NCBI RefSeq assembly: GCF_006345805.1
Contig: NW_021836731.1
Span: forward strand, 1-22,762
Direction: 5' to 3'
DNA from: Octopus sinensis
Taxonomy: Eukaryota
DNA length: 22,762 nucleotides
The notes under the pieces are model-generated. The model was given only the letters and a program-made list of their open reading frames with translations. It did no database searches and was not told the origin of the DNA. How positions within the stretch are numbered: position 1 is the stretch's first letter; each line of letters starts with the position of its first letter. A program made the position numbers and the translations under genes. Positions 6,644-19,526 of this stretch are shown in pieces.

Positions 6644-6687
<44 letters not shown>

Positions 6688-6894: not shown

Positions 6895-6898
<4 letters not shown>
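6688..6898. mobile_element. Unclassified ~210-bp insert flanked on both sides by (TA)n
   Basis: Non-repetitive sequence between perfect (TA)n at 6645-6687 and 6899-6940, with a short duplication TAGTAGAAAGAAT at its left end. Confidence 0.5.
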
Positions 6899-6944
<46 letters not shown>

Positions 6945-9939: not shown

Positions 9940-10007
<68 letters not shown>

Positions 10008-10012
<5 letters not shown>

Positions 10013-10472
10013 TAACATCCCCACCGCCCTGCCCCTAGCCACATTCAAATGGCTAATGTCCCTTATGTGATGGAGCAGTTACTGTCTATATCTCGTTTAG
10101 AGAATTATTATTGCTGTCGAACAGATTTTCGAAATCAGTAAATGTATTTACGTGAAAATCTATATATAAATATCCTGCACAGGAAGTTGTTCGTCGAGGA
10201 GCGGTGCCTGCCATACGTTGACGATAGGCAAATACCTTGAAACCTGGGTCCGTATGTGGCATCCGCTTCTTCGGGGAATGATCTCCCTTTGCAGGATAGA
10301 GGACACCGTGATGGTGTCAGCCTATCTGGTGACGTTGATGATCGCCTGGGGCTAAATACATCAGTAACACCCCCACCGCCCTGCCCTGTCCCTAGCCACA
10401 TTCAAATGGCTAATGTCCCTTATGTGATGGAGCAGTTACTGTCTATATCTCGTTTAGAGAATTATTATTGCT
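10008..10472 (+). mobile_element. Non-coding element with ~110-bp direct terminal repeats (period 352 bp) inserted in (TA)n; retrozyme/Penelope-pLTR-like
   Basis: 10008-10115 is repeated at 10360-10472, differing by 2 substitutions and a 5-bp indel. (TA)n on both sides; internal hammerhead motif. Confidence 0.8.
10209..10261 (+). ncRNA. Type I hammerhead ribozyme motif (variant core)
   Basis: Stem I CAUACG (10212-17) / CGUAUG (10251-56); core UUGACGA (10218-24); stem II AGG/CCU; GAAA (10239-42); stem III ACC-UG-GGU; cleavage triplet GUC (10248-10250). Confidence 0.7.
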
Positions 10473-10494
10473 ATATATATATATACACACAGAA

Positions 10495-11517
10495 ACGAGG
10501 AGGTACCCAAAAGTAATCAGAAACGTTCTCTGTGGGACAAGTCCATTGCAGTTAAGCCTTCCGCCATTAGAAGCCACTTGATGCGATCCTAAGGGATCAG
10601 TCTAATGACCGGCATGCTCGTGTGCGGTCGCACTGTCACGAGCTGTGACTTTGTTTTGGAATGCTTCTCCCCTGTTCGTCAGGTTTTGCGATGGCTAAAA
10701 CGAAGGAACAGCGTGCCTCCGTGGAATTTTGATTTCTGCTGGGTAAAATGGAAGCCGAAAGTGTTGCCATGCTTCAAACAGATTACAAGGACGTTACCAT
10801 GAGCAAAACACAACACACACACACCAAAAACACAAGTTTACATGTTGTTTTCATGCTTTAGCGATAGTCACTTGTCGCTTGAAGACCAACGTCATTCGGT
10901 GGAACCATCGACCTCCCGAACAAATGAAAACATCACGTAAATTCATGAACTGATCTTGAAGGACTGTCGCCGAAATTTGACGAACTTGTTGATATGAATG
11001 ATGTTCCTGGAGCTCCTACCAACGAAGTTTGAGCGAGGAATTGCGAATGAAAAGAGTTGCAGCAAAATTTGTGCTTCTCTTGCTCACGGAAGATAAAAAC
11101 CAGTCACGACTGCTAGGGCTACAACCTGGAAACAAAGAAGCAATCAAGTTAATGGAAGCATTCTATGTCACCACGCCCCGCACAAGCGCGTCAAGTGAAG
11201 TCCAATATCAAGGTGATGCTAATTTGTTTCATCAACGCGAGAGGAATTTTTCGCAGAGAATTTGTTCCACCTGGTCAAATTGTTAGCCAGACATTTTGCT
11301 TGGCAGTTCTGAAGCATTTGCGAGACGCGGTGAGACGAAAACGCCCCGAACATTGGCAAAGTGGAGAGTGGTGGTTTCATCACGAAAATGCGCATGCGCA
11401 CACCACCTTGAGTGTGAGACAGCTTTTGACTAAAAATGGCATAACCTCGATTACTCACACTCCCTATTCACTCGATCTTGCTCCCTGCGACATTTTTGTT
11501 CCCCCGAATGAAAAATG
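10495..11517 (+). mobile_element. Decayed mariner (Tc1/mariner) DNA transposon, internally deleted and 3'-truncated
   Basis: TIR-like ACGAGGAGGTACCCAAAAGTAA at ~10495. ATG at 10691 reads MAKTKEQRASVEF*FLLGK, followed by AAKFV-LLL, KVMLICF, WFHHENAHAH (HDNA motif) and HTPYSLDLAPCD (YSPDLAP motif). Stops and frameshifts; ends at (CATA)n. Confidence 0.92.
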
Positions 11518-13903: not shown

Positions 13904-15098
13904 GTCGCCGTTTGTGAGGCACGCTTTCCCGCAGCTCGTCTCCATGACCGAACTGCAGTCGTGGATCAAAAAGAGGCCGAGGAAGGGCGAATGGCACCGC
14001 GAGTGTCGCGTTGCTCTCAAGCAACTCTGCCGTCCTGGGTCGACCTTAAGTGACTTCAACACAACCAAAGCATTCTATAGGGGTTTAGTGGAGGGGAGGT
14101 ACGACGACGAGCTCGGGGCGAACCTGGACGTCGACGAGGAGTACCTGACTTTCGGGCCAGGGCCCATGGACAACTTCCAGAGATCCCTGGCCTGGCAGTG
14201 CTACCGAGAAGCGCTACCCGTTCGGGATAAGCTCTACAGACACGGCTCGAGAAACACGGGGCCGACCTGCCCGAGATGCGGTCAGAGCGACGAAACCGTT
14301 CTGCACGCACTCGTTCAGTGTCCAACAATTTCCGACCTGTGGGCTTATGTCGAACAACTGCTGTCACGTGTGGGACGAGTCGGTTTATCAGCTGAGTCTA
14401 TCGTCAATATTGTCACGCCTCCTTCCTTCAAACGGGAATGAAGAGCTATTTTCATCATCCTTGTGGCTATGGCGAAAGAATGTATCTGGTGGACGCGTCT
14501 GAAAGGATTGGAGACAAACACTTTCCTCTCTGGTCAATCTCTCATCAACTTCTTCAAGTACCACTTGAAAAGGAAAGTGAGAGTAGAGAGGCAAGTTTTG
14601 TCTAGCGAATGTTTTAAAAAAAGATGGGTGAATGTAGCAAGAATGGCACGTATGAATGACGAAGCCACCTTGAGCATAGTCCTATGAACCCAGAAATCGA
14701 AAACAGAGAGTTGCTTATGTGAAAAAAAAAAAAAAAAAAAAAGAAATATAAAATGTGACTTCATTGACCGAGGTTACCGTGGTCTTTTCCGCAGGCTTTT
14801 CTTTCCACGGGTAAACCTCACCTGTCCTCCCCTTTACACTTCATATTGACATTTCTGTGATAACGATCCCTATTGATCATTTTTTTTTTTTCCTCTCCCC
14901 CCCTTTTTTTTTTTTATTTATTTATTTTTTTTTTTTTTAACCCCCCTTATTTTTGTCCTCTTTCTCTCCTTTTACGATCCCTTTTGATCGAACCTCCCCT
15001 TCCTTTTTTTTTTTTTTTTTTAATACCTTCAAAAAGAAAAGCTCTACCTTGTAATTTGTTCTATCTGTGTGCAGCCCTGTGTGGCTAATAAAGAAACA
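13904..15098 (+). mobile_element. 5'-truncated Tx1/L1-clade non-LTR retrotransposon (copy 2): ORF2 C-terminus plus 3' UTR, embedded in (TCTA)n
   Basis: Highly similar to 18386-19526. CCHC-type zinc motif CPRC...ETVLHALVQC; premature TGA at 14439-41; AATAAA at 15087-92; TCTA repeats on both sides. Confidence 0.9.
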
Positions 15099-16599: not shown

Positions 16600-16768
16600 C
16601 GATAGACACATTGATAATGAGACATTCACAAAATAAATGAATATTTCATTGTCTCCTTAGTTCATTATCTTCCTTAAACCTTATTCTGTCTCCGTTGCTC
16701 TACATATGTTCATGGGGGTTACTATATGAAGAGATCTCCAGACACGCACACATCTATCTGTCTGTCTG

Positions 16769-19189
16769 CCGACGTTGTAGCAGCGAGGTTGGCCCTCGAC
16801 CAACACTTCATCGCCAAACACGAAGGGTGTGTTGTCAGAGCTAGGATGCGTGCTCTAAGGAACGAAGGTGTTGGAGCCGCGCGAGAGGCCCGGGTGGCAG
16901 AAGCGCAACAGGGCAACAAAGCCACCATTCGGTCTCTGGTAGATGAACAGGGGCGCGAATTACTCGAGCCAAGTAAAATGTGTGATCCTTTCAACAGCAT
17001 TTTGCCCGACTGTTCGAGAAGTGTGGCGGGCAAGAACGTGGGGTGGACTTCAGTGCCTACCTACACAGCCTGCCACGACTCTCGACAACAGAGGCAGGGG
17101 GCTGCGAAGGTGCCATCACGGCGGCGGAAGTGCGGGACGCGATGGCAGAATGCTCGAGGGACAAATCGCCGGTTTGGATGGTCTACCCTACGAGCTTTAC
17201 AGTTGTATGCCAGACTTGTTTGGAGACTTCTTAGCAGCGGTGTACTGCAACTGGCAGCAAAACGGGAGCATCCCTGGTTTTGTGAGCCGAGGAGCCGTAA
17301 CACTGCTGAAGAAAGTTCTAAACAAGGCAGATGTAATTGATAAATTTAGCCCATCACTCTGGTTAATGCAGACTTGAAAATTTTGGCCAAGAGGTTGGCG
17401 CTTGTCATCGAGAAACTGGTCGACAAGGCGCAAACGTGCGCCGTGCCGGACCTGAGCATCCATGACAACCTCCATCTGATGCGCTACATCATAGACAGGG
17501 TAGTTAAGGATCAATCGAAAGCTTTCGATACGGTAGACCATCGATACTTGGAGGCTGTGCTCAGAGCGGCTGGTTTCGGTCCCGTGTCCCGCGGCTCAAT
17601 AGCCGCTTTGTACAGAGGTATCCGTTCAGTAATTCGCGTAAATGGGCATTTTTCGAGACCTTTCGACATTGCACGTTCGGTCTGTCAGGGATGCTCCCTC
17701 TCGTCGCTTCTCTACGTATTGACTCTCGAGCCATTATTGCGGAAGTTGGCAACTCTGAGGGGCATCTCGTGAGAACTGGGATGCGGGACGTGCGTGTCGG
17801 CATACGCCGACGACGTCACCGTCATAGTATCTAGCCACGAGCACATCAAGCTGGTCGGCGAGACACTGAAAGACTACGAAGCGGTGACAGGAGCGAAAAT
17901 CAACCGGGAAAAATCAGTGGGCTTGCGGCTCGGCACCTGGAGAAGCAAGCCCATGCCGTCCACCAACGCCTCCGTCGTGGGACGCTGGACCGACGGTCCG
18001 GTCGAGTTGCTCGGGGTCTGGTTTGGTCCGGACCTCCAAATGGAGAAAAACTGGAACGAGATAACGAGTACGGTGGCCACTCTCGCCCGGCAATGCACCG
18101 AGAGGAAACTGTCCCTAAAAGGTCGGGCGGAGGTGGCGAACTCATACATCGCGTCCGTCATCTACTACCGCCTGACCGTCGTGCCTTATCCCGACCCTAC
18201 TATCACCAAACTACAACGCATTCTCTTTCGCTTCTTGTGGAAAGGATGCGTCCCGATGGTCAGGCGATCCATTTGCTGTCAACACCCGTTAAAAGGAGGA
18301 CTGGACATGCCTTTGTTGATGATGCGCAGACACGCGCTGTAACTGCGACATTTCAGGCTCTACGTAGACGACGGTGAACAGGTGTGGTCGCCGTTTGTGA
18401 GGCACGCTTTCCCGCAACTCGTCTCCATGACCGAACTGCAGTCGTGGATCAAAAAGAGGCCGAGGAAGAGCGAATGGCACCGCGAGTGTCGTGTTGCTCT
18501 CAAGCAACTATGCCGTCCCGGGTCGACCTTGAGTGACTTCAAAACATTCAAGACATTCTATAGGGGATTAGTGGAGGGGAGGTACGATGACGAGCTCTGG
18601 GCGAACCTGCACGTCGACGAGGAATACCTGACCCACCTATTCAGGACGACATTCGGGCCAGGACCCATGGACATCTTCCAGGGATCCCTGGCCTGGCAGT
18701 GCTACCAAGAGGCGCTACCCCGTTCGGGATAAGCTCTACAGACACGGCTCGCGAAACACGGGGTCGACCTGCCCGAGACGCGGTCAGAGCGACGAAACTG
18801 CTCTGCACGCAATCGTGCAGTGTCCAAAAATTTCCGGCCTGTGGGCTTATGTCGAACGACTGCTGTCACGTGTGGGACGAGTCGGTTTATCAGCCGAGTC
18901 TATCGTCAATATTGTCTCGCCTCCTTCCTTCAAACAGGAAGGAAGAGCTATTTTCATCATTCTTGTGGCTATGGCGAAAGAATGTATTTGGTGGACGCGT
19001 CTGAAAGGATTGGAGACAAACATTTTCCTTTCTGGTCAATCTCTCATCAACTTCTTCAAGTATCACTTGAAAAGGAAAGTGAGAGTAGAGAGGCAAGTTT
19101 TGTCTTGCGAATGTTTCAAAAAAAGATGGGTGAATGTAGCAAGGATGGCACGTATGAATGACGAAGCCACCTTGAGCATAATCCTATGA
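16769..19189 (+). pseudogene. Disrupted ORF2 (reverse transcriptase plus C-terminal zinc-binding region; endonuclease absent because of truncation)
   Basis: KSP/GLDGLPYELY, DQSKAFDTVDH, VCQGCSLSSLLYVLTLEPLL, AYADDVTV, GAKINREKS, LSLKGRAEV, KGGL-MP. Stops at 17770-72 and 18340-42 plus several frameshifts. Confidence 0.92.
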
Positions 19190-19526
19190 ACCCGGAATAA
19201 TTTAAAACAGAGGGTTACCTACTTGCAAACAAATATGTTAACATATGACACTATTAACCGAGGTTACCGTGGTATTTTTCGTAGGCTTTTCTTTCCACGG
19301 ATAAACCCTATCTGCTTCCCCTTTTACACTTTACATCATGACATTTCTGTGATACACGATCCCTATTGATCGTTTTTTTCCTTTTCTTTTTTCTTTCCCT
19401 TTTACAATACCTTTTGATCGAAAACCTACCCCACTTTTTTTCTTTTTGTTTCTTTTCTCCCCATAAAGAAAAGCTCTACTTTGCAACCTGTCCCGTCTGT
19501 GTGCAGCCCTGTGTGACTAATAAAGA
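16769..19526 (+). mobile_element. 5'-truncated Tx1/L1-clade non-LTR retrotransposon (copy 1), flanked by TCTA/TCTG repeats
   Basis: Colinear ORF2 remnant, 3' UTR, and AATAAA at 19519-24 directly followed by (TCTA)n. The 5' junction is CATCTATCTGTCTGTCTG. Confidence 0.93.

Follow-up and report, generated by a model that had tools for sequence, protein, structure and literature searches.

The insert at positions 10008-10472 of the window (the whole 22,762-nucleotide stretch of Octopus sinensis DNA that we analysed) is a 5'-truncated, one-armed copy, 1.3 units long, of a young family of 357-bp non-coding repeats. The explanation that we consider best, with a probability of roughly 0.6 when its mechanism is included, is that the family is likely a non-LTR retrozyme copied in trans by a Penelope-like reverse transcriptase-endonuclease; the broader statement that it is a non-autonomous element mobilised by Penelope machinery is, judged from its sequence, very probably correct. 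The class of element was already known; what is new is the wobble in its hammerhead core and a quantified rule for the ends of its insertions. The sequence-only reading of this DNA had proposed a non-autonomous, TA-targeting hammerhead retroelement of the retrozyme/Penelope kind, and this proposal was borne out by a dispersed young family with tandem arrays and variable 5' ends and, further, by a Penelope tail, inverted arms and stem covariation.

The terminal direct repeat and the TA repeats on both sides that had been noticed in the letters were real. The (TA)n target arrays, to which no strand is assigned, run from 9961 to 10009 and from 10472 to 10485, and TA flanks were found at most family loci. 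Between them, on the plus strand as are the other parts of the insert given below, lie a 5'-truncated partial unit (10008-10115, unit positions about 245-357) and a full 357-bp unit of subfamily A1 (10116-10472), with tandem copies at other loci 96-100% identical. The monomer had been put at 352 bp; that spacing results from a 5-bp deletion in the partial unit that is private to this copy, and tandem copies at other loci repeat with a period of 356-358 bp. The copy ends at 10472, the long 3' end of the family, and its last 44-46 nt (10427-10472) form a Penelope-type tail; the family's short 3' end (unit positions 310-313) falls at 10425-10428 and is not used as an end here. A TATA-like tract at 10160-10173, lying in an unpaired linker and with its TATA core kept across families, is by its sequence a possible internal promoter. 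All three side hairpins of the earlier reading were present: GACACC/GGTGTC (10302-10318), with a double change from C-G to A-U, and TAGCCA/TGGCTA (10393-10412) also appeared in the cross-family consensus fold, whereas GGTGA/TCGCC was present in a five-unit fold and absent from the cross-family one. A conserved long-range helix joins CAGTAAC (10362-10368) to GTTACTG (10435-10441, inside the tail) and encloses both the TAGCCA/TGGCTA hairpin and the short 3' end; its seven pairs were kept in 10 of 10 units, with an A-U to G-C double change in three, in a consensus fold in which the row from L169 includes about 45 nt of the opposite arm. The 3' domain around this helix is, in our model, a candidate recognition domain for the reverse transcriptase.

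The element is not single-copy. When the genome (an assembly of 2.72 Gb, rich in microsatellites) was searched with the unit, full-length matches 96-100% identical were found among the best 40 of 1,660 candidates, and a 17-nt motif of subfamily A1 had 59 exact matches. An 18-nt motif of the wider clan of approximately 350-360-bp units had 1,949 exact matches (reversed control, 0), and the A1/A2 motif was present in 12 of the first 100 clan matches listed. Subfamily A2 was read at 7 loci; A3 and A4 had 127 and 475 motif matches, respectively, and the A4 unit is 361 bp long. Subfamilies of the U3 lineage, named for the core base described below, are about 8-18% apart, and the similarity of families B, C, D and E to A1 is 53-65%. 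A tree of 11 unit rows, from which four planned rows without a full unit had been left out, separated the U3 lineage from families C and D; the inner order of the U3 lineage, and hence the order of the core changes, was not recovered in it. Short arrays of clan copies were scattered across most large contigs. Literature searches combining octopus or cephalopod with hammerhead or retrozyme did not turn up a description of them. L281:5720-6320 contains another two-armed hammerhead element, more distant and weakly similar to the clan (E ~1e-8), in which the core is U3-A8 and loop III is a 4-nt palindrome.

The type I hammerhead occupies 10203-10263, with an extended and bulged stem I and a core at 10212-10256, and its parts lay where they had been read: CATACG (10212-10217), TTGACGA (10218-10224), AGG (10226-10228) and CCT (10235-10237) around loop II (10229-10234), GAAA (10239-10242), the stem III/loop III octamer ACCTGGGT (10242-10249), GTC (10248-10250) and CGTATG (10251-10256). 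By hammerhead numbering, cleavage after GUC is predicted between 10250 and 10251 (unit position 135), U3 (10218) stands opposite G8 (10223), and a U-U lies at the base of stem II. With both strands searched, a descriptor that was written after the motif had been seen and that permits U3 gave a single match in the window and none in 300 shuffled windows. Rfam hammerhead models, suggested earlier as a check, missed it; that scan returned only microsatellite noise, with no hammerhead at E <= 10.

The change of C3 to U had been taken as decay of this copy, an interpretation that the family contradicts, as 55 of 57 A1 cores read TTGAYGA and the other two were unreadable; U3 is common to recently spread subfamilies and thus is not a sign that the window copy alone is dead. 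Among A2 cores 10 of 12 were TTGACGA, one was U3-A8 and one was damaged; with duplicate loci removed, 25 of 27 A3 cores were U3-A8; and all four A4 cores read were U3•G8. In place of CUGANGA, A1 cores thus read TTGAYGA, and CTGATGA was the core in families C (35/40) and B (20/33). U3-A8, carried by the sister subfamily A3, is a known natural covariation of hammerheads (PMC4209133; PMC3088659). Literature searches, mainly of running text, gave no report of a U3•G8 wobble fixed across entire subfamilies that were mobile recently. From the sequence, the combination of U3•G8 with the basal U-U of stem II is expected to weaken the ribozyme, whose predicted cleavage is probably slow. Our model leans somewhat toward measurable cleavage of the U3•G8 ribozyme as a dimer; among Xenopus retrozyme dimers, eight of nine are reported not to cleave (bioRxiv 10.64898/2026.07.22.740005).

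Pairing in the motif was supported by an alignment of 17 motifs, in which 90.8% of cells were paired versus 22-47% when the partners were slid, and double changes occurred at 8 of 21 pairs. The core pair 3-8 was C-G in 10 motifs, U-G in 4 and U-A in 3, and was never broken. The fraction of paired cells and the score were reached by 0 of 500 shuffles and the number of double-change pairs by 173 of 500; the rows are related and hand-picked, and one of them (L165) was mis-cut and lacks its 3' half. Loop III varies between families and is self-complementary in nearly all of those examined. In A1 the octamer was present in 51 of 57 copies; it can pair with itself along its whole length of 8 bp, two of the pairs being G-U (-9.8 kcal/mol), and as its counterparts in related families are palindromic, it is the predicted dimer contact. 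The suggestion that it is a CpG-decayed palindrome may hold for the family ancestor, as one of two equally short routes since relatives carry CCCGGG and also CCTAGG; it fails as a change private to this copy. The 352-nt stretch folds at z = -4.0, and in all 16 motifs folded the active monomer fold lay 4-15 kcal/mol above the minimum. By analogy, a self-complementary loop III with a disfavoured monomer fold is the pattern of the dimer-cleaving hammerheads described in animals (PMC4209133, PMC7229834).

The ends of the inserts were tallied at 96 non-duplicate loci of A1, A2, A3 and C, which were best-scoring matches rather than a random draw. The 3' ends fell at two fixed sites 44-46 nt apart, mostly abutting (TA)n; the 5' ends varied. 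At these loci 64 inserts had two arms with both 3' ends facing outward, and in 51 of them both ends could be classified (in the other 13 one end lay elsewhere and was unclassifiable): 49 were long+short, two were long+long (L115 and L199), and none was short+short (binomial p ~1e-12 against 0.5). Where the flank was not pure TA, target duplications of about 9-11 bp were visible (L005, L176, L179, L187, L196 and L110). This is the insertion signature of Penelope elements: 5' truncation, partial tandem, inverted arm, optional 3' tail and AT-rich target. The arms were longer than one unit in 67 of 163 cases, the longest being 1,817 nt, and 5' ends at the predicted cleavage site were not enriched (4/163 within 3 nt versus 3.2 expected), so that these arms show no genomic trace of cleavage; two exact cases of 5' truncation at that site were rejected as a pattern on the same count. 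These two observations indicate that linear monomers released by cleavage did not serve as templates, which were instead circular or multimeric and uncut. The head-to-head junctions were flush or overlapped by 1-6 nt in 45 of 59 cases. In A1 (mean rank 0.12, n=17) and A3 (0.03, n=10) the two arms of an insert resembled one another more than they did other loci and so have a template lineage in common; in family C (0.42, n=15) this was not clear.

We propose that tandem loci would be transcribed, perhaps from the TATA-like tract, and that two hammerheads would dimerise by way of the self-complementary loop III, with slow cleavage after GUC. Since a lone motif is predicted to misfold, 357-nt unit circles would be stable; given the sequences, the odds that such circles (of 357 nt, not 352) exist are about even. 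The window copy carries a single hammerhead, as had been claimed, and cannot by itself release a unit circle; the family loci L008 and L018 carry at least two consecutive complete ones. A Penelope protein would recognise the conserved 3' domain and introduce nicks about 9-11 bp apart in the two strands of a TA-rich target, and each DNA end would then prime its own cDNA from the same template lineage, one at the long site (unit position 357) and one at the short site (about 311). The cDNAs would run round a circle or along a multimer, stop at random and be joined head to head, mostly with 0-6 nt of overlap; if only one end primed, a one-armed copy like that in the window would result. A Penelope protein has been reported to nick and extend both strands and to begin synthesis at two positions inside the RNA, by which the tail is defined (PMC11167929). 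A fuller version of this proposal is tentative and, taken whole, we regard it as doubtful: that viroid-like RNA circles are reverse-transcribed by a dimeric Penelope enzyme, each half of which primes from one of the cut DNA strands at a fixed site of its own on the circle, and that the core evolved between C3-G8 and U3-A8 via a functional U3•G8 wobble, the slower ribozyme favouring multimeric or circular templates and hence spread.

The alternative that survives best, although we consider it unlikely, keeps the same Penelope mobilisation and makes the U3•G8 hammerhead nearly inactive, the templates being uncut read-through transcripts of tandem loci, with no circles. The unenriched 5' ends at the cut site and the many arms that read through the ribozyme fit it, as does the finding that single C3G or G8C changes, which kill a Penelope hammerhead, leave insertion in vitro unaffected (PMC11167929); a contig from a public run that we guessed to be RNA also crosses the ribozyme unbroken, though contigs can show neither ends nor strand. 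However, within the U3 lineage changes in stem I were compensated (CATACG/CGTATG versus CACACG/CGTGTG), loop III kept its self-complementarity through four different versions, and pairing had been restored at position 8 or 3, as U3-A8 in A3 and as C3-G8 at L296. A dead motif should not keep these features.

No open reading frame with reverse transcriptase (RT) and GIY-YIG endonuclease was found in or beside the unit. The genome contains Penelope-like frames of two clades, Neptune-like and Hydra-like, some of them uninterrupted. The Neptune-like frames encode RT and GIY-YIG; the Hydra-like ones are long open frames of up to 960 aa, assigned to their clade by a motif given in PMC8557442 and without a Pfam match. 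A search for a partner with PF01541 yielded mostly two Neptune-like families among the best 150 of 5,029 candidates. The linkage to a Penelope frame that the earlier reading had suggested looking for did not appear: the unit profile gave no contiguous match in the loci sampled from thousands of candidates, 38 with GIY-YIG and 80 Hydra-like or neighbouring. Relatives of the unit beside Neptune-like loci (L087, L094) and at the neighbouring L199 were separate TA-site inserts, as were those unit matches at Hydra-like loci that were inspected, and neither was accepted as a partner link. The units might instead be solo pLTRs, the 3' stubs of an autonomous Penelope-like element rather than a free-standing family. 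Published pLTRs likewise have a tail, inverted arms and a hammerhead (PMC8557442; PMC3846280), and an ATG near the 3' end of the unit opens a short frame across the tail, like Penelope ORF starts, in which no clear codon-type conservation between families was seen by eye. We think this quite improbable, because in arrays of up to about 5 units, in several families, position 1 follows immediately on position 357 without an intervening ORF, and at none of the 96 tallied loci was a unit seen to run into an ORF at either end.

Two observations on the Penelope loci stand apart from this question. At the Neptune-like loci L092, L093, L094 and L096 an upstream ORF overlaps the RT-endonuclease ORF with a T-run in the overlap, a sequence arrangement that suggests a programmed frameshift; a frameshifted ORF1 has already been drawn for Penelope-like elements (PMC8557442). 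Loci L264-L277 hold several Hydra-like families with frames up to the 960 aa noted above, and the frames of L264 and L265 are identical at both ends, which makes it probable that these families were recently active.

Another explanation concerns the inverted arm only, which in a published antisense self-priming model (PMC3846280) arises by fold-back rather than by a second target-primed event. In 27 of 46 cleanly joined long+short inserts one arm was nested in the other, and arms share variants, both as fold-back would predict. In the remaining 19 of the 46, neither arm was contained in the other and neither could have been copied from it, which for those cases argues for two separate priming events; moreover, each arm abuts the target DNA at a fixed site, and the junctions are mostly as tight as described above. 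We therefore consider fold-back very improbable, and two independent primings per two-armed insert are, on the sequences at hand, likely. Least probable of all, and hardly worth retaining, is a satellite or TRIM-like repeat that recombination has multiplied locally and that resembles a hammerhead by chance, since the missing Rfam match and the local satellite-type expansion proposed for retrozymes (bioRxiv 10.64898/2026.07.22.740005) are outweighed by dispersed short arrays whose 3' ends are fixed, whose 5' ends are random and which lack TG...CA termini, by the empty shuffled windows and by the stem covariation.

By its testable sequence features the family is a non-LTR retrozyme, a known kind with a variant core. 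It has tandem non-coding units within the range of about 150-450 bp, one type I hammerhead per unit with the U3•G8 core that Rfam models miss, and no LTR, and its duplications exceed 4 bp. The mark of an active retrozyme used by Li et al., at least two consecutive complete hammerheads, is found at L008 and L018 and not in the window copy. The RT plus GIY-YIG frame of an autonomous Penelope element is lacking, and the fixed LTR ends, 4-5-bp duplication and type III hammerhead of a TRIM or LTR retrozyme do not occur here, a distinction that had been proposed as a check. With the non-LTR retrozymes of Cervera and de la Pena 2020 (PMC7229834) and Li, Clavereau and Pollet (bioRxiv 10.64898/2026.07.22.740005) it shares 350-360-bp tandem non-coding units of GC <50%, a single type I hammerhead in each unit whose helix III is short and self-complementary, long target duplications, no evident LTR, PBS or PPT, and Penelope-like elements in the same genome; in the same two sources, mussel retrozyme units are 350-390 bp and one axolotl motif also has a U-U at the base of helix II. 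It differs in its core (U3•G8 rather than C3-G8), and neither the tail rule nor two-armed insertion came up for retrozymes in the text consulted from those sources; the word 'tail' does not occur in the preprint. Circles and cleavage have been demonstrated for published retrozymes; for the octopus family they are predictions.

The 2026 preprint argues for an origin of retrozyme-type elements from Penelope repeats (bioRxiv 10.64898/2026.07.22.740005). Like the endonuclease-bearing Penelope-like elements Neptune, Hydra, Naiad and Poseidon, the octopus family has 5' truncation, partial tandems and an inverted 5' arm, prefers (TA)n and has a hammerhead and a TATA-like tract in its repeat (PMC8557442; PMC3846280; PMC11167929). 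In those sources target duplications are 8-10 bp versus about 9-11 bp here; the Penelope tail, often on one end only (PMC8557442), has a published length of 30-40 nt versus 44-46 nt here. In contrast to autonomous Penelope-like elements, the octopus unit has no ORF, and no sequence homology to the repeats of the sampled elements was found.

How animal retrozymes enter the genome and how inverted, one-tailed Penelope insertions arise are both open questions. The in vitro work on Penelope found two start sites and no strand difference (PMC11167929). The small young octopus families provide many independent insertions with a near-strict one-long/one-short rule and non-nested arms, and a 357-nt template with its conserved 3' domain fits the existing in vitro assay directly. 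The C-G, U•G and U-A series at core pair 3-8 is a natural experiment on the level of ribozyme activity that an element of this kind requires.

None of the listed public runs that contain the unit is recorded as RNA; in those guessed to be RNA the unit was present as contigs, some of them permuted and unit-length, which circles or tandem DNA fit equally. One A4 copy (L296:1500-1530) has the core CCGAUGA, that is, C3-G8 with U4C, and its motif had one exact 18-nt match in the genome assembly; U4C is among natural core variants tolerated in vivo (PMC4209133; PMC3088659). The CCGAUGA form was dominant among the contigs examined from several public runs, DNA-guessed and RNA-guessed alike, which suggests that different subfamilies have expanded in different individuals or species. 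That a rare genomic variant dominates the RNA was ruled out by the 475 genome matches of the A4 motif and, further, by the dominance of the same core among contigs examined from the DNA-guessed run. A-to-I editing as a source of variants was not supported overall (A>G 52 versus T>C 45); A3 alone leaned to A>G (19 versus 9, p = 0.037, one of six tests).

Elsewhere in the window, two perfect 43-nt (AT)n arrays (6645-6687 and 6898-6940) lie 210 nt apart with an AT-rich spacer between them, and the hammerhead descriptor gave no match in the arrays or spacer. Just past the right TA flank starts a decayed DDE transposase element (10498-11500; Pfam Transposase_1 at 11153-11500), which we take to be mariner-like. 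A 35-nt inverted match of 77% between the unit (10121-10155) and this transposon (10933-10967) is probably due to chance. At 13950-14690 and 16700-19190 lie broken pieces of LINE type that are related to each other and match RT and zf-RVT, the former repeating the 3' part of the longer one.
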